Below are positions 27,387 to 33,883 of a DNA stretch of 64,000 bases, in pieces. The notes beneath the pieces were generated by a model. It had not been told where the DNA came from. It searched no databases and saw nothing but the letters and a program-made list of their open reading frames with translations. A program made the translations under genes and the position numbers. The number at the start of each line of letters is the position of its first letter. Positions within the stretch are counted from its first letter, which is position 1. Source of the DNA: an uncultured bacterium (GTDB lineage: Bacteria; Fermentibacterota; Fermentibacteria; Fermentibacterales; JCC-6); the NCBI GenBank assembly GCA_964386635.1, contig CAYLRO010000003.1:13345-77344 (forward strand), in the 5' to 3' direction.

Positions 27387-29807
27387 TCAATGTGATACTT
27401 CATGGTTGTACTGCTCTGTTATCTGCCGGTGAAGTCTGATGTTCAGGAAAGAGTTCCTCAACTCAGGGTCATCAATATTGTCGGCTTCCTTCATAAGAGA
27501 GGTGAATGAATCCCTGAGGAGGGTTTTTCTCTTCAGAAGCAATTTCTTCCGATTGGTTGCAGAAGGGATCTCAGCAATTTTCCCGTAGAGTTTTGACAAC
27601 CCAAAAAGTGTTTTAGTGAGATTGTTTACTTCAGGCACAGCGTGATTTTCCACTTCCCTGGCCTGTTCAAGTGCTGCAGCGATGTTCTCAGGTCCGGTTC
27701 CTTCTTCAAGAATAACAGAGGCAAGGTCCAGCCGTGCAGTTACCGTTCTGGTTTCTGCACCGATCCCCTCAAGGCTGGAAACAGCTTCCAGGAGACGTTC
27801 CCTGGCTTCTTCTGTGCTGCCGGAGTTCATGAGGGAATGACCAATAAGGGCAAGATTCTCACCTACTCCCTCAATGTCCTCGATTTCCCTGCTTATGGAC
27901 AGGGCTTCTCTGTAGAGAGGAAGTGCTTCTTCGTGCAATTGTTTCTCGCTGAGTATATCAGCCAGATTTGTCTTCACTATGCTTTCCGTATATCTGTCTC
28001 CGATTTCCACGGCAATCTTCAGAGCATTGCTGTATTGCTCACGGGCTTTTGTGAACTGACCGATATACCTGTGCATGTTGCCGGCACCAACCAGGGTTCT
28101 GCACTGCCCCTGCCTGTTCCCCATTCTGATATTCAGTTCCAGTGCCTTTTCTGTATGCTCCAGTGAAACCTGAAATCTGCCCATGTTTCGAGTGACTATA
28201 CCCAGATTCATGTGCATGTTTGCCTGCCCCCCGGGGTCGCCCAGGCGGTTGAAAAGATTAAGTGAGCTGGTGTAGTACTCCAGTGCACCGGTGTTGTCGC
28301 CCATTGACCAGTGTGTAAGCCCCATGTTGCACAATATATTGGCTTTCAGGTGCCCCATTGCGAACACTCCGGGAACATTCAGCGCTTTCTCCATGTATTC
28401 AAGTGCGCTTTCGTATTTTCCTGTGGTGCAGTCGATAAGGCCCAGATTTGCAAGTGCCTTGGCCTCTTCTGAAAGATCATTGAGTGTTCTGCCAAGCATG
28501 AGACATCGGTGAAAGGCGCTTCTGGCACCCTTGAAGTCGGACTGTCTCCACTTAATGTTTCCCATAGCACTCAGGGCCAGGAGAAGGTTTTTACGGTGGC
28601 AGTTATCTCTGGCTGTTTCATACACCTGGGTGAATTCGTTCTCTGCAAGCTGAAGATTTCCTGAATCACTGTAGGTGTAACCGAGAAGAAGTCTTGCCTG
28701 TATCAGTGCATTGTCCTGTTTCAGAGCCTGTTCAAGCAGAGTTCTTGTTTTCTCAGAGTCCCTGATGTTCTGCCGGTTTTCGTAAAGGTTCTTAGCCTGC
28801 AGGTAGAGGGTGTAGGCTTGTGAAGGACCGGAACTGTCTTCCGGAATACTGGTGCTTAAGGCGGGGTCCACACCCATGATCTTAAGAAGGCTGTCTGCCA
28901 GTTTTCCTTTTATGGAAGGGAGTTCGAACCAGCTGTCAGTCCAATTGTCAGCCCATGCAAGCCTTTTCTGGTGAAGATCGTGCAGCTCAACCGAGAGCTG
29001 GAACATTTCCTCTTTTCTCCACAGTGATCCCCTGACGATGAAGCGCACATTGAGCCTTTCGGCGATTTCCGGTCCGGCATTCACCACCTGTCTGATCTTT
29101 ATTACATCACTGAGAGGGGTTACCACAATCCCTCCTGCAGAAGCCAGATCGGAAACAAGGTCGGAAGTTATTCCGTAGGCATAAAAGTCGTCTCCGCCGT
29201 TCCCCAGGTTCTCCAGAGGAAGCACTGCCACTGAGGGTATCTTCTCTTTCAGTGTAACCACACCGTCTGACACGGCTTTCCCGGCGGAAGTGAAGGGAAG
29301 AGGATGTCTGGATGAGCCCTTCAGATTGTAAAGGTTAACAAGCCTGCCAAGCCCCTTTAGCTTACTCAGTCCCAGGTTATGGGCGGCGGGTTTTCTCCCG
29401 GCCCCGCAGTTCCGGAGAAGTTCGCCTGAAATGCATACTCCACCGGGAGGAGCCAGGTTTTCAAGTCTTGATGCTACATTCACCGTGTCTCCGAGAACAT
29501 CTCCCGGCTGTAGCAGAACATTGCCCCAGTGTATCCCCACACGGAGTCTGAAAGGTTTTTCCGACAGTCTGCTCTGAAGTTCCCCTGCGCAGCGGATTGC
29601 AGACCGGGGCAGGATGAAAGTAGAGAGGGTGCCGTCGCCCATCTCCTTTATAAGTGAACCGTTGTGTTTTTTCAGAAGCGGCGACAGCGTATCCCGGAGG
29701 ATGGAGATCATTCTGAGAGCTTCCTCCTCGTTTTGCTCCATGAAGGAAGTGAATCCCACGATATCGGTGAACATTACAGCAAGTTTTTTTCGAGAATCCG
29801 GGCTCAA
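27387..29807 (-). CDS. Class III adenylate/guanylate cyclase with C-terminal TPR repeats
   Basis: The N-terminal CHD-like domain has motifs such as MFTDIVGFTSFME, EMGDGTLSTF, LRVGIHWGNV and GDTVNVASRLE. The remaining ~500 aa are TPR-like repeats. Confidence 0.8.
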   Translation of the reverse strand: MSPDSRKKLAVMFTDIVGFTSFMEQNEEEALRMISILRDTLSPLLKKHNGSLIKEMGDGTLSTFILPRSAIRCAGELQSRLSEKPFRLRVGIHWGNVLLQPGDVLGDTVNVASRLENLAPPGGVCISGELLRNCGAGRKPAAHNLGLSKLKGLGRLVNLYNLKGSSRHPLPFTSAGKAVSDGVVTLKEKIPSVAVLPLENLGNGGDDFYAYGITSDLVSDLASAGGIVVTPLSDVIKIRQVVNAGPEIAERLNVRFIVRGSLWRKEEMFQLSVELHDLHQKRLAWADNWTDSWFELPSIKGKLADSLLKIMGVDPALSTSIPEDSSGPSQAYTLYLQAKNLYENRQNIRDSEKTRTLLEQALKQDNALIQARLLLGYTYSDSGNLQLAENEFTQVYETARDNCHRKNLLLALSAMGNIKWRQSDFKGARSAFHRCLMLGRTLNDLSEEAKALANLGLIDCTTGKYESALEYMEKALNVPGVFAMGHLKANILCNMGLTHWSMGDNTGALEYYTSSLNLFNRLGDPGGQANMHMNLGIVTRNMGRFQVSLEHTEKALELNIRMGNRQGQCRTLVGAGNMHRYIGQFTKAREQYSNALKIAVEIGDRYTESIVKTNLADILSEKQLHEEALPLYREALSISREIEDIEGVGENLALIGHSLMNSGSTEEARERLLEAVSSLEGIGAETRTVTARLDLASVILEEGTGPENIAAALEQAREVENHAVPEVNNLTKTLFGLSKLYGKIAEIPSATNRKKLLLKRKTLLRDSFTSLMKEADNIDDPELRNSFLNIRLHRQITEQYNHEVSH

Positions 29808-29899
29808 TAAAAATTCCTTATCGGTAAGAGTGAAGTCAGTGCTGAAAGGTAAGATAGTGAAAAGATGAAACCCGGGGAAAAGGGGGGCCTGAGTGTCCT

Positions 29900-29928
29900 T
29901 TGACAGCTAAACACATGTTTACTATTTT
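29900..29928 (+). promoter_or_regulatory. Putative sigma70 promoter (TTGACA-17-TATTTT) with embedded palindrome AAACACATGTTT, a candidate LexA/SOS operator, upstream of the small-ORF/dinB operon
   Basis: TTGACA lies at 29900-29905 and TATTTT at 29923-29928. AAAC-N4-GTTT at 29909-29920 resembles the Cheo-type GAAC-N4-GTTC SOS box. Confidence 0.3.
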
Positions 29929-29952
29929 TGGATTGAAGGAGAGAGGTGAGCC

Positions 29953-30204
29953 TTGCAGGAGCTGGGAGAGAGAATAGAGATGATCTGCCACTTTTCAGGG
30001 GGCAATGTGATCCCGTGCAGGTTTCGCTGGCAGAACAGGGTTTATCATGTTGTGAGAGTCTCATCCTCCTGGGAGAGCAGAAGAGGAACGGTTAAGTTCT
30101 TTCACTTTGTTGTAAGAACCTCTGCAGACGATGTTTACGAGATACACTTCAATACAGAAACTATGGGGTGGATACTGGATTGCGAGTACTCTCATGGAGC
30201 CTGA
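29953..30204 (+). CDS. Small hypothetical protein (74-83 aa) translationally coupled to dinB
   Basis: The start is either TTG at 29953 or ATG at 29980, and both have purine-rich RBSs. The stop TGA overlaps the dinB ATG region by 11 nt. It is a beta-rich sequence (RFRWQNRVYHVVRV...KFFHFVVRTSADDVYEIHF). Confidence 0.45.
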   Translation: MQELGERIEMICHFSGGNVIPCRFRWQNRVYHVVRVSSSWESRRGTVKFFHFVVRTSADDVYEIHFNTETMGWILDCEYSHGA

Positions 30205-31348
30205 CAGAAGGATACTGCATGTGGACATGGATGCTTTCTTTGCTTCTGTAGAGCTTCTGGGCCGGGAGGAACTGAGAGGAAAGCCGGTAATAGTAGGGGG
30301 AGACCCGGGCTTCCGGTCTGTGGTTACATCCTGCACATACCAGGCCAGAAAGTACGGTGTTCATGCAGGCATGCCCATGACCAGGGCCCTGAACCTGGTC
30401 CCTGATGCGGTGGTTCTTTCAGGAAGCTTTGCCCGCTACAGAACATACAGCCACAGGGTTCTCGAGGTTCTCCTGAGTTTTACTCCCAGGATGCACGCAA
30501 CAAGCATTGATGAAGCCTTTCTTGATCTTTCCGGAACAAGAGGTTCCATGCTTGAGAAGGGAAAGAAGATACAGCAGGCAGTGTTCAATGCAACCGACCT
30601 TTGGTGTACAGTGGGATGCGGTCCCAACAGGCTTCTGGCCAAGATGGCTTCCAACCTGTACAAGCCCCGGGGAGTGGGCCTTCTCATGCCGGATGACATG
30701 GTTGATCTTCCTGCAGGAGCCATCTGGGGAATCGGTCCGAAGACAGCAGAGAAACTGAGCATGTATGGAATTGATACCATCGGAAAACTCAGAACCCTGT
30801 CCCGCTCAACAATCAGATCAATACTGGGGGTACACGGAGAAGATCTCTACAGGTACGCAAGGGGGATCGATGACAGACCGGTGAAACTCTTCGGCCACAG
30901 GGAGCCTCCAAAATCCATGGGACACGAGCACACCTTTACCAGGGATGTTTCAGAACCTGCTGAATACATGCCTGCACTGGCCATGGTCTGTCAGAAAACC
31001 GGATGCAGGGCCAGGGAAGGAGGATGGCAGGGCGGTGTGGTAACGCTGAAGTACCGTCTCCGCAACATGAAGAGAATTACCAGAAGAAAGATACTGACTT
31101 CACCTACCAACCAGGACCAGACCATACTGAAAGCAGCAGGTGAGATGGCAGAAACCTGGATAAATGAACCCATCCGTCTCATAGGAGTGTCTATAAGCGA
31201 ACTTGTACCCCTGGAGAACGCCCAGCTCAGTTTTTTCCCTGAAGGAACAACCGCACTTAACAATGTTGCTGACAGGGTGAGGAAAAGATACGGAGACAGG
31301 GCAATGGTCAGCGGAAGAGCTCTGGAATACATACAGGGAAAAGGATGA
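30194..31348 (+). CDS. dinB: DNA polymerase IV (Y-family)
   Basis: The N-terminus is Y-family-like (MEPDRRILHVDMDAFFASVE). Little-finger domain motifs are present. I chose the internal ATG at 30194. The ORF track begins at 30131. Confidence 0.9.
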   Translation: MEPDRRILHVDMDAFFASVELLGREELRGKPVIVGGDPGFRSVVTSCTYQARKYGVHAGMPMTRALNLVPDAVVLSGSFARYRTYSHRVLEVLLSFTPRMHATSIDEAFLDLSGTRGSMLEKGKKIQQAVFNATDLWCTVGCGPNRLLAKMASNLYKPRGVGLLMPDDMVDLPAGAIWGIGPKTAEKLSMYGIDTIGKLRTLSRSTIRSILGVHGEDLYRYARGIDDRPVKLFGHREPPKSMGHEHTFTRDVSEPAEYMPALAMVCQKTGCRAREGGWQGGVVTLKYRLRNMKRITRRKILTSPTNQDQTILKAAGEMAETWINEPIRLIGVSISELVPLENAQLSFFPEGTTALNNVADRVRKRYGDRAMVSGRALEYIQGKG

Positions 31349-32181
31349 CAATGGACCTGTTCAGCTCCCAGGTGCAGAAAAGAGTTCTCCAAGGTGGAGC
31401 CAGGCTTTTTCTGGGAACATCCGGATACAGTTTCCCGGACTGGAAAGGGGTGTTTTATCCCAGGCGCATTGCCGGGAAGGACTGGCTCCGGTATTACGCC
31501 CTGCAGTTCAATTCAGTTGAGATCAACTCCACTTACTACAGGCTGCTCTCTGAAAATGCCACGGCAAAAATGGCGGAATCCGTGCCTGATGGATTCTCTT
31601 TTACTGTGAAGCTGCATTCATCAATGACCCACTCCAGAGATGCAGGAAAAGAAGAGTGGAAGAAGTTTCACAGAATGATCGGGCCATTGAGAAAAACCAG
31701 CAGAATGGGGATGGTCCTTGCCCAGTTCCCATGGTCTTTTCCTCTGGAGGAGAGATCATTCCAGTGGCTTGAGCAGCTGGCCTGCAATCTGAACGGTATC
31801 GATACAGCGATAGAGTTCCGACATGCAAAATGGTACTCCCGTGAAACTCTGGAAAGGGTATGGGAAATGGGATTCGTCCCTGTTTCTCCAGATATGCCCG
31901 GCCTGAAAAATCTGCCTGCTTCAGGCCCGTTGTTTCCTGGAGAGAATATCTACATAAGGCTGCACGGGAGGAATTCTGAGAAGTGGTGGGGGAACACTCA
32001 GGAGAGGTATGACTATCTCTACAATGAGAGTGAGCTGAATTTCTGGGCGGAAAAACTGGGCAGCCTTTCAGAAGAGGTGAAGAACTGCTATGTTTTTTTC
32101 AACAACTGCCACATGGGTAAAGCTGCCCTGAATGCAAAAGACATGGAAAGACTCCTCCAGGGAGTCACGGAGGCTGATTAA
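31345..32181 (+). CDS. DUF72 (YecE-like) family protein
   Basis: The N-terminus LFLGTSGYSFPDWKGVFYP...YYALQFNSVEINSTYYRL is the DUF72 signature. The ATGA overlap with the dinB stop indicates coupling. Confidence 0.8.
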   Translation: MTMDLFSSQVQKRVLQGGARLFLGTSGYSFPDWKGVFYPRRIAGKDWLRYYALQFNSVEINSTYYRLLSENATAKMAESVPDGFSFTVKLHSSMTHSRDAGKEEWKKFHRMIGPLRKTSRMGMVLAQFPWSFPLEERSFQWLEQLACNLNGIDTAIEFRHAKWYSRETLERVWEMGFVPVSPDMPGLKNLPASGPLFPGENIYIRLHGRNSEKWWGNTQERYDYLYNESELNFWAEKLGSLSEEVKNCYVFFNNCHMGKAALNAKDMERLLQGVTEAD

Positions 32182-33116
32182 TGAGAAGAGTACTTTATTC
32201 ATTTCCAATACTGATGTTCCTTGCCGGCTGCGGAGGAACAGGTGTGTCGATCAACAGCGAGTTCCCTGCATTCTATTTTCAGGACATCACCACCGGGGCG
32301 ATTCCAACTTCCTGCTGTTTCCTGGGAGGAAACGGGGATGTCCTTGCAGGAGCAGGCACATCCCTTTATTTCGTTGACAGTGACGACGGCTATGTAAGAG
32401 CCGAGGTTTCCCTGGGGGTCCCGATAACCGATGTGGAAGGCTCACCGGAAGGCGGGTACGGGCTGGCACTTTCAGGAGACATACTTTTCGTTGTATCAAA
32501 TGACATATACACAGTGCATTCTCAGATACCGCTTTCCCATTATGGCAGTTTCATTATTCCCAGGCCGTATTCCACATCGATCTTCGTTCTCTGTGCCGAT
32601 GGTACACTTGTGAAGATAGAAACAGTGGGCTGGACAATTACGAAATCAGGCCAGACAGATGCAACTGATCCAGTGGCAGCAGTTATGGGAACAAGTGGCG
32701 ATTACATCTTTGCAGCAGACAGTGATGGAACGGTTTACAAGATATCAACTTCAGACTTTTCAACAGTTGCACAGACAACTGTTGATGGCGGGGTGAACGG
32801 AATGTGTTCAACACCGCTGGGCGAGGTTTTTGTTTCTCCAGAGGGAGAAAGCCAGGTATGGGCCATCGACTGCGGAACCGGCCAGCACTCCAGGTCATTT
32901 GATCTTCCCGGTGAACCAACTGCTCTTGCCTGTACAGGCAGCGGAAAGTACCTCTATGCAACATTGCCGGAACAGGGGTTTGCAGTGGTGAATGTGGCGG
33001 ACAACACAACTGAAGCGATTATCGGAAGTTACGGAGATCCTTCGGACATGGCAATCAACACACAGACTACCAGAGCCGCTCTCTGCTGTATCGACCTGTA
33101 TATACTGCAGAACTAG
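32181..33116 (+). CDS. Hypothetical lipoprotein (beta-propeller-like repeats)
   Basis: The lipobox is MRRVLYSFPILMFLAGCGG. The rest is a repeated beta-rich sequence. Confidence 0.55.
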   Translation: MRRVLYSFPILMFLAGCGGTGVSINSEFPAFYFQDITTGAIPTSCCFLGGNGDVLAGAGTSLYFVDSDDGYVRAEVSLGVPITDVEGSPEGGYGLALSGDILFVVSNDIYTVHSQIPLSHYGSFIIPRPYSTSIFVLCADGTLVKIETVGWTITKSGQTDATDPVAAVMGTSGDYIFAADSDGTVYKISTSDFSTVAQTTVDGGVNGMCSTPLGEVFVSPEGESQVWAIDCGTGQHSRSFDLPGEPTALACTGSGKYLYATLPEQGFAVVNVADNTTEAIIGSYGDPSDMAINTQTTRAALCCIDLYILQN

Positions 33117-33883
33117 AGGAGAATGCTCAGATAGCCCTGCCAGAGAGATTCGCCGAAGAACAGTGATATCAATGCTCCCAGTGCCATGAACGGGCCGAAG
33201 GGTATGGGAACACTCTTTTTCCTTTTTCGGAACACCATAAGTGCTCCGCCCACCACTGCTCCAGTTATAAAAGCTGCAAAGAAAGCAATCACAGTGTGCC
33301 CCGGTCCCAGAAATGCTCCCGTACACGCTGCCAGTTTCACGTCACCCCAGCCCATACCACCCTGGAACTCGTCCTCTTCATCTTCGAATCCTTCCGGAGC
33401 TTCAGTTCGTATCTTCTGCTGTTTCAGATAGATCGATGCTCCTGTTCGAATAAGAAGGAAGAAGAGAAATCCTCCGGCTGCGCCTATGAGGGAACTGCGA
33501 ATACCGATACCCCCTGGAAGCAGTGAGAGACCGATGCCTGCCACAGCTCCTCCGATGCTCACCTCGTCCAGAACGATGAACTGCTCGGTATCAGTTCTTA
33601 CCACCACAACCATAAGTGAAATCAGAACGGCATAAGTTATGAAAACCAGGGAATAACCTGTGTGCACCGCTGCCAGGAAGAAGAGAACACCTGTAACAAA
33701 CTCTGTTACCGGATAACGGGCTGATATGTGCATCCCGCAGTTCCTGCACCTGCCTCTGAGAAAGAGATAGCTGAGAACAGGGATGTTGTCTTTCGGCTCT
33801 ATTTCCTTTTTGCATCCAGGACATGCACTGGGTGGTGAGATAATGGACTTCCCAAGGGGAACCCGCCAGCTTACTACATTCAA
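33113..33883 (-). CDS. pilD: Prepilin (type IV leader) peptidase, A24 family. The 5' end is probably upstream of the annotated TTG, near 33946.
   Basis: The protein has (F)LNVVSWRVP, then the zinc domain CPGCKKEI...RGRCRNCG, then TM helices with catalytic Asp-containing regions. The conserved TM1 (SIDSIFGIFAGLLGLCIGSF) is encoded in frame at 33884-33946 but no ATG/GTG/TTG precedes it. Confidence 0.75.
   Translation of the reverse strand: MNVVSWRVPLGKSIISPPSACPGCKKEIEPKDNIPVLSYLFLRGRCRNCGMHISARYPVTEFVTGVLFFLAAVHTGYSLVFITYAVLISLMVVVVRTDTEQFIVLDEVSIGGAVAGIGLSLLPGGIGIRSSLIGAAGGFLFFLLIRTGASIYLKQQKIRTEAPEGFEDEEDEFQGGMGWGDVKLAACTGAFLGPGHTVIAFFAAFITGAVVGGALMVFRKRKKSVPIPFGPFMALGALISLFFGESLWQGYLSILL

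Follow-up and report, generated by a model that had tools for sequence, protein, structure and literature searches.

ImuB-C was described by Aravind, Anand and Iyer in 2013 as a conserved domain at the C-terminus of ImuB, and its standalone form was found to be combined most often with dinB (PMC3765255). Timinskas and Venclovas reported lexA-imuB-C-polY operons with an active polymerase in 2019 (PMC6511836), and the operon of this type in Geobacter is damage-induced and forms a single transcription unit (reported in PMC6511836). In the scheme of Timinskas and Venclovas, a polymerase paired with ImuB-C is expected to carry a RecA-NT-like motif (DUF4113). An 80-residue protein of Deinococcus deserti, Deide_1p01890, has also been named ImuB-C (PMC8072749). 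Aravind et al. had at one time suggested, as a speculation, that ImuB-C might be an SH3-like barrel (PMC3765255); a 2026 survey of bacterial polymerases described a beta-barrel unlike the SH3 barrel of UmuD'/YqjX and without a close relative in the PDB, modelled ImuB-C in contact with DnaE2 and ImuA, and presented AlphaFold models that support complexes containing PolY and ImuB-C (PMC12926913). The subject here is a small open reading frame (ORF), imuB-C, that lies directly upstream of dinB in a 64,000-nucleotide stretch of DNA from an uncultured bacterium of the Fermentibacterota (contig CAYLRO010000003.1; the whole stretch is called the window). Its product is a standalone ImuB-C protein (Pfam DUF6504), a member of an already described family in the commonest context of that family. 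Very probably, imuB-C is the first gene of a LexA-controlled operon and encodes a non-catalytic accessory of an active Pol IV-type polymerase. A reading of the DNA from its letters alone (the sequence-only reading) had offered the protein as a possibly undescribed partner of DinB; the family was in fact defined in 2013 (PMC3765255) and reanalysed in 2019 and 2026 (PMC6511836, PMC12926913).

The small ORF proves to be a genuine gene, and it is conserved. Spurious ORFs of about 83 codons are common by chance in the window, so size alone means little, and the ORF is counted as a gene because of its conservation, purifying selection and confident fold, not because of its length. A word-indexed search of 5.8 billion proteins returned nine homologues with 62-89% identity, two of them with a Fermentibacteria-related source name; these, together with loci found later, point to Candidatus Fermentibacteria. 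A scan of one genome per species gave 43 loci with protein identities of 51-90%, all from Fermentibacteria (Sabulitectum, Aegiribacteria, Fermentibacter). One relative, P0002, is 86% identical to the window protein and carries the NCBI source label 'Gemmatimonadaceae bacterium 4484_173'. The label of this metagenome-assembled genome is probably wrong, since every other close relative derives from a Fermentibacteria genome.

Thirty-one columns are invariant across the orthologues in the close-orthologue alignment. Among the nearest relatives, the codon alignment gives a proportion of nonsynonymous differences (pN) of 0.05-0.09 and a proportion of synonymous differences (pS) of 0.61-0.92, with synonymous sites saturated, and the ratio of nonsynonymous to synonymous rates (dN/dS) is 0.02-0.06 where dS can be estimated at all; its median over all pairs with 0.05 < dS < 2 is 0.24. 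An AlphaFold2 model built from only ten sequences has six beta-strands and no helix (predicted local distance difference test score, pLDDT, 91; predicted template modelling score, pTM, 0.80). The sequence-only reading had called the product of the ORF beta-rich, and in this it was right.

It had also named two candidate starts. Both exist, and only the upstream one, TTG at 29953, is taken as the start. Initiation at the alternative ATG, at position 29980, would give a protein of 74 residues and drop nine residues that include E6 and E9, both invariant in a ten-sequence alignment of close orthologues; the N-terminal motif of the wider family, E-x-I-x-E-P-I-x-V, likewise includes residues ahead of this ATG. 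By codon back-projection, the codon at the homologous start position is TTG, GTG or ATG in 33 of 46 sequences, while in the remaining 13 the back-projected start falls one or more codons within the gene. Because the nine residues are conserved and start-type codons occur in these 33 sequences, ATG 29980 is not the likely start. A purine run precedes the TTG, and GGAGGTG-like runs occur at the equivalent place in orthologous loci.

The sole Pfam match of the window protein is DUF6504 (PF20114; E 9.4e-5, 23.1 bits; gathering score 24.2 bits), and precomputed PF20114 matches were present in five of the nine database homologues. No match was found in NCBIfam, PHROGs or PADLOC, and thus no phage or defence family. 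When a profile of the orthologues was run exhaustively with HMMER against 1.84 billion cluster representatives, it recovered 564 proteins at E <= 1e-3, of which 94 reached E <= 1e-10. Among the 564, the 150 with the best scores are all 68-139 residues long, and the family is therefore one of small standalone proteins. DUF6504 matches at E <= 1e-3 were obtained for 87 of the 150 sequences that were aligned and scanned, and no other family recurs among them. W73, near the C-terminus, is the only invariant column of the 150-sequence alignment; the family consensus P-x-R-F-x-W-x-x-R-x-Y contains R23 and R29, both of which are invariant among the orthologues. These features match the 2013 description of ImuB-C: a C-terminal tryptophan, at least two basic residues and no pattern of catalytic residues. 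In the cluster look-up, family-member clusters are named 'hypothetical protein' only, and a literature search on the name DUF6504 found no paper that mentions it.

The link from DUF6504 to ImuB-C runs through D. deserti. In the RefSeq plasmid record, Deide_1p01890 is annotated as 'DUF6504 family protein' and lies between a Y-family gene and dnaE; its DUF6504 score of 30 bits exceeds the cut-off. The 150-sequence family profile aligns with this protein at an hhalign probability of 90% (E 1.7e-6), over residues 19-79 of the window protein, which include the P-x-R..W..R.Y motif and the terminal tryptophan. A 'DUF6504 family protein' is also annotated beside a Y-family gene in several other Deinococcus plasmids. 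The two systems thus share a homologous protein of about the same size that matches DUF6504 in both, and in D. deserti as in the window imuB-C overlaps a gene for a Y-family polymerase or polymerase-like protein, in an operon that is SOS-controlled in D. deserti. They differ in gene order, with imuB-C after the Y-family gene in D. deserti and first in the window, and in the partner: the D. deserti Y-family protein ImuY has been predicted to lack activity (PMC8072749) and synthesis falls to DnaE2, whereas the window polymerase keeps its catalytic residues and has no adjacent dnaE2.

Full-length ImuB was approached by several routes. An ImuY query gave matches in Deinococcus and Thermus only, and tblastn with DinB against plasmids for ImuB was dominated by UmuC and DinB matches; DnaE2 as the entry point led to two canonical ImuB proteins encoded in imuA-imuB-dnaE2 cassettes. 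Agrobacterium ImuB has a weak, sub-threshold DUF6504 match (E 0.0044) at its extreme C-terminus, residues 428-498 of 503; with hhalign, the family profile falls, again weakly (E 0.0079), at residues 414-476. In Burkholderia ImuB the best alignment is non-significant and also lies at the extreme C-terminus, residues 441-488 of 492. The similarity of ImuB-C to ImuB was originally reported at E values of 1e-3 to 1e-5 (PMC3765255), and the values obtained here are similarly weak. According to the literature, ImuB's C-terminal domain within the ImuA-ImuB-DnaE2 mutasome belongs to the same domain superfamily as the window protein, and it is described as a beta-barrel without a close PDB relative, as is the model made here. 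In ImuB, however, the domain forms one chain with an inactive polymerase-like protein, and models place it in contact with DnaE2 and ImuA, whereas in the window it is a separate protein encoded beside an apparently active polymerase.

The pairing with dinB holds throughout the phylum. As determined by tblastn with both proteins, every Fermentibacteria locus with sufficient downstream DNA, 45 in all, has a DinB orthologue directly after imuB-C (three further loci, cut by a contig end, were left out); conservation of the pair in relatives was a check that the sequence-only reading had proposed. Upstream neighbours vary, with a cyclase-TPR gene in the window and a glycosyltransferase gene or an unknown 465-aa gene elsewhere; since they differ between lineages, it is the imuB-C-dinB pair itself that is conserved. 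The upstream neighbour in the window is a divergent gene on the minus strand (27387-29807) for an 806-residue protein in which an adenylate/guanylate cyclase domain at the N-terminus is joined to many TPR repeats, and it does not occupy this place in the more distant Fermentibacteria loci examined.

The sequence-only reading had also correctly placed the TGA of the small ORF across the dinB ATG, an overlap of 11 nt. The same overlap occurs in the closest loci (of the Sabulitectum type). In more distant Fermentibacteria, roughly 10-150 nt lie between imuB-C and dinB, which makes adjacency general and the overlap only local. Read off the sequence, no Shine-Dalgarno-like run lies directly upstream of the dinB ATG. 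This fits coupling by termination and reinitiation, and it is likely that translation of dinB is coupled to that of imuB-C in this way.

Eight distant family members, with 23-38% identity to the window protein, were examined for their context. The pairing with a Y-family polymerase is repeated in six of these independent contexts: lexA-X-polY operons occur in two of the eight, and in four the gene lies directly 5' of polY, with an overlap of 1-14 nt or a gap of 4 nt. One member follows lexA without a polymerase gene (loci L050 and L051, candidate division Zixibacteria). Another lies between cinA and a GNAT acetyltransferase gene in Litorilinea sp. (Chloroflexota; L052:4001-4270) with no Y-family polymerase nearby, and the DUF6504 family is therefore not always linked to a polymerase.

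The partner polymerase looks catalytically active, because the motifs DMDAFF (residues 11-16) and SIDEAF (residues 104-109) are kept in it and in its orthologues. Its Pfam matches include IMS (E 4.4e-44) and IMS_C (E 1.7e-22), and it scores 267.8 bits on the NCBIfam Pol IV equivalog PRK02406, above the cut-off of 256. The C-terminal tail of DinB is conserved across the phylum, with a pentapeptide, QLSFF, followed by the strongly conserved segment ALNNVADRVRKRYGDRAMVSG. In nearly all orthologues aligned over this stretch, the pentapeptide has the form Q-[LMFQ]-x-[FLMI]-[FYMIP]. The consensus for binding to the beta-clamp is QL[SD]LF, and by this resemblance QLSFF would be a clamp-binding motif. 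[quoted passage not shown] Pfam DUF4113 was not detected in the window DinB tail, and the PolY tails of two further loci, L049 and L054, gave only sub-threshold DUF4113 matches.

The region ahead of imuB-C contains a sigma-70-type promoter, the only promoter-like site in 29600-32400. TTGAC and a -10-like yAT recur at the same spacing in all 48 Fermentibacteria loci with upstream DNA, in the layout TTGAC-N3-T[A/G]AAC-N4-GTT[T/C]A-C-yAT. The palindrome in the promoter spacer is the only perfect match to its sequence in the window; in several orthologous loci it takes the form of a perfect GTGAAC-N4-GTTCAC. In the arms of the palindrome, AAC and GT show no variation among 43 distinct orthologous promoters; variation is seen in the central three bases and in those adjoining the -35 element, and all sequence farther upstream has diverged. 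In Firmicutes, Actinobacteria and Gallionellales, the LexA motif is GAAC-N4-GTTC (PMC4951493). The presence of a palindrome of this type between the -35 and -10 elements in every orthologous locus suggests that the operon is under LexA (SOS) control. In the distant lexA-imuB-C-polY locus L049, a box of the same type, TAAACAAATGTTCA, precedes lexA by about 43 nt. In the Zixibacteria loci (L050:3100-3218 and L051), the lexA promoter has a perfect palindrome of another sequence, CTGCAC-TAAT-GTGCAG, between TTGACA and TATAAT; this lineage seems to use a different LexA box in the same promoter-embedded layout.

The closest described systems are the (lexA-)imuB-C-polY operons, such as that of Geobacter sulfurreducens with GSU0042 (PMC3765255, PMC6511836). 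Common to both are an all-beta protein of about 80 residues with an invariant C-terminal tryptophan and conserved basic residues, the Pfam family DUF6504, a gene order in which imuB-C directly precedes the gene of an apparently active Pol IV-type polymerase, and a LexA-type operator, which is putative in the window. The relationship to GSU0042 is drawn from operon type, the family profile and the D. deserti reference protein. The Fermentibacteria operon differs in having the operator only, without lexA, and in the DUF72 and lipoprotein genes appended to it. Fermentibacteria are known only from metagenome-assembled genomes and lay outside the complete-genome sets of the earlier studies (PMC3765255, PMC6511836). 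What is new here is modest: a phylum-wide Fermentibacteria example with lexA absent from the operon, an operator that is clearly conserved, and an appended DUF72 gene, which in an unrelated lineage likewise comes after imuB-C-polY. The result carries the imuB-C-dinB module into a lineage that only metagenomes have revealed, and it gives a function-linked name to a 'hypothetical protein' conserved across this candidate phylum. The conserved promoter and operator predict the LexA box of Fermentibacteria, and as a compact pair of genes with an active polymerase, the system would lend itself well to model studies of standalone ImuB-C.

In the proposed mechanism, LexA bound at the promoter palindrome would repress the operon until DNA is damaged. 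After induction, the small protein and DinB would be produced together, since ribosomes finishing imuB-C would sit ready for the overlapping dinB ATG. ImuB-C would then bind the active Pol IV-type polymerase, probably with RecA, as a non-catalytic accessory subunit, and would regulate or target translesion synthesis. Several points weigh against this account. The score of the window protein lies just below the DUF6504 cut-off, so that membership in the family depends on profile-level evidence and context, and the single-sequence links to full-length ImuB are weak (E 0.004-0.26). The RecA-NT motif expected in the DinB tail lacks significant support, both from hhalign and from DUF4113. No lexA or recA was found in the window or in the fetched Fermentibacteria flanks, which leaves the operator without a tie to the LexA regulon of the phylum, and the palindrome is not enriched beyond chance in the window (three matches with at most one mismatch, 0.79 expected); the two one-mismatch copies elsewhere are taken as chance because they lie inside long ORFs. 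Since some family members have no polymerase neighbour, polymerase binding may not be the sole role of the family. A literature search found no biochemical test of any standalone ImuB-C protein.

A stronger form of the same account is rather doubtful and is put forward tentatively. Here ImuB-C would be an obligate regulatory subunit that makes an active DinB RecA-dependent and SOS-gated, giving a Pol V-like mutasome built from unrelated parts, and the co-translated DUF72 protein would be a possible further component. DUF72 comes into consideration because the imuB-C-polY-DUF72 trio recurs with overlapping genes in an unrelated lineage. There, in locus L058, imuB-C, polY, DUF72 (L058:5032-5868) and LMWPc form a chain of overlapping genes, and the proteins of the trio are 27-41% identical to those of the window (DinB 35%, DUF72 41%). 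In Fermentibacteria, the DUF72 gene lies downstream of dinB in most loci, and it is probably part of the imuB-C-dinB operon. These arrangements are hints that DUF72 could be functionally linked to translesion synthesis; a literature search on DUF72 was uninformative, as the term also matches the DUF72x families.

The main alternative to an accessory subunit of the polymerase is the proposal of 2013, that the protein is a damaged-DNA sensor or recruiting factor that acts on DNA and is co-expressed with the polymerase without being a stoichiometric subunit of it. Such a role would suit the conserved basic and aromatic residues, the lack of a catalytic pattern, the polymerase-free members found with only lexA or next to cinA and an acetyltransferase gene, and the links to Ku/ligase and SplB systems noted in the literature (PMC3765255). 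Near-universal adjacency to polY genes, with frequent overlap, fits a physical partnership better, however, and in ImuB the domain is covalently joined to a polymerase-like module and modelled as a protein interface with DnaE2 and ImuA. A role on DNA alone is therefore considered unlikely.

Less probable by a good margin is a true partnership with a DnaE2-type polymerase whose gene lies elsewhere in the genome, the linkage to dinB being secondary. The ImuB-C domain of ImuB has been modelled as the main contact of DnaE2, through its PHP domain; DnaE2-[ImuB-C]-PolY-RecA systems are also on record (PMC12926913). Against this, neither the window nor any fetched Fermentibacteria locus has dnaE2 beside the pair, and because the polymerase keeps its catalytic residues, DnaE2 is unneeded in the published scheme (PMC6511836).

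A divergent homologue of UmuD or YolD, which as a subunit of SH3-like or S24 type would bind to the polymerase in the way of UmuD' with UmuC, is more improbable still. The sequence-only reading had proposed an accessory factor of this kind, and as a functional analogy the comparison is reasonable: UmuD' with UmuC (Pol V) and YolD/YqjX with UvrX/YqjW are also small beta-rich proteins beside Y-family polymerases, under SOS control and presumed to be regulatory subunits, and the SH3-like barrel once speculated for ImuB-C pointed the same way. As a statement of homology it fails in both the Pfam and the PDB fold searches. No Peptidase_S24 or YolD match was obtained at E <= 1, and among the matches listed in the PDB fold search there was no UmuD/LexA structure and no fold similar to YolD, UmuD or the SH3 barrel. 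The AlphaFold2 model has no close PDB relative and is not SH3-like among the matches listed, in agreement with the 2026 survey (PMC12926913), and a search of the family profile against PDB sequences found no relative, its sole match being a lectin at E 0.097. The window protein further lacks the S24 autoprotease domain of UmuD and, being structured from residue 2 in the model, the free N-terminal arm of YolD, and its partner polymerase is of the DinB type, not the UmuC type.

That imuB-C is a mere leader ORF that drives dinB expression by coupling and encodes a functionless peptide is scarcely credible: the stop/start overlap and the missing Shine-Dalgarno run would suit it, but it runs counter to the strong purifying selection on the amino-acid sequence with its 31 invariant columns, the confident fold prediction, the 564 representatives over many lineages, some without a polymerase neighbour, and the conservation of the protein in distant Fermentibacteria even where gaps to dinB reach roughly 150 nt.

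Table 1. Coordinates of the features of the imuB-C-dinB operon in the window
Feature	Position	Strand	Remarks
Sigma-70-type promoter	29900-29928	+	-35 TTGACA (29900-29905), 17-nt spacer, -10 TATTTT (29923-29928)
Palindrome TAAAC-ACAT-GTTTA, candidate LexA (SOS) box	29908-29921		In promoter spacer; GAAC-N4-GTTC type
Shine-Dalgarno-like purine run AAGGAGAGAGGTGA	29936-29949	+	Precedes TTG; read off the sequence
imuB-C, standalone ImuB-C/DUF6504 protein, all-beta	29953-30204	+	83 codons; TTG start, TGA stop at 30202-30204
imuB-C stop/dinB start overlap	30194-30204	+	11 nt; TGA 30202-30204, ATG 30194-30196; likely site of translational coupling
dinB, Pol IV-type Y-family DNA polymerase, apparently active	30194-31348	+	384 aa; Pfam IMS, IMS_C, IMS_HHH_1
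QLSFF, beta-clamp-binding-type pentapeptide	31223-31237	+	DinB C-terminal tail, aa 344-348; conserved
ALNNVADRVRKRYGDRAMVSG, candidate RecA-NT-like motif	31253-31315	+	DinB tail, aa 354-374; strongly conserved in orthologues
DUF72 gene	31345-32181	+	Pfam DUF72, E 6.5e-58; ATG overlaps dinB stop (ATGA, 31345-31348)
Predicted lipoprotein gene	32181-33116	+	311 aa; ATG overlaps DUF72 stop (TAATG, 32179-32183); last co-oriented gene

The four co-oriented genes imuB-C, dinB, DUF72 and the lipoprotein gene are chained by overlapping stops and starts (Table 1). The last of them encodes a protein with a lipoprotein-type signal (…FLAGCGG…), and an orthologue with 27-74% identity follows DUF72 in most Fermentibacteria loci. 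Searches of PHROGs and PADLOC gave no informative family match for this protein, only a weak PADLOC HEAT-ARM match (E 0.0014). With Rfam, no RNA family reached its gathering score anywhere in the window. The chain ends at a convergent gene on the minus strand (33113-33883), which shares 4 nt with the end of the lipoprotein gene and encodes a membrane protein of 256 residues; its cysteine-rich N-terminus and its synteny with A24 peptidase genes in loci L001 and L003 suggest that it is a prepilin peptidase.

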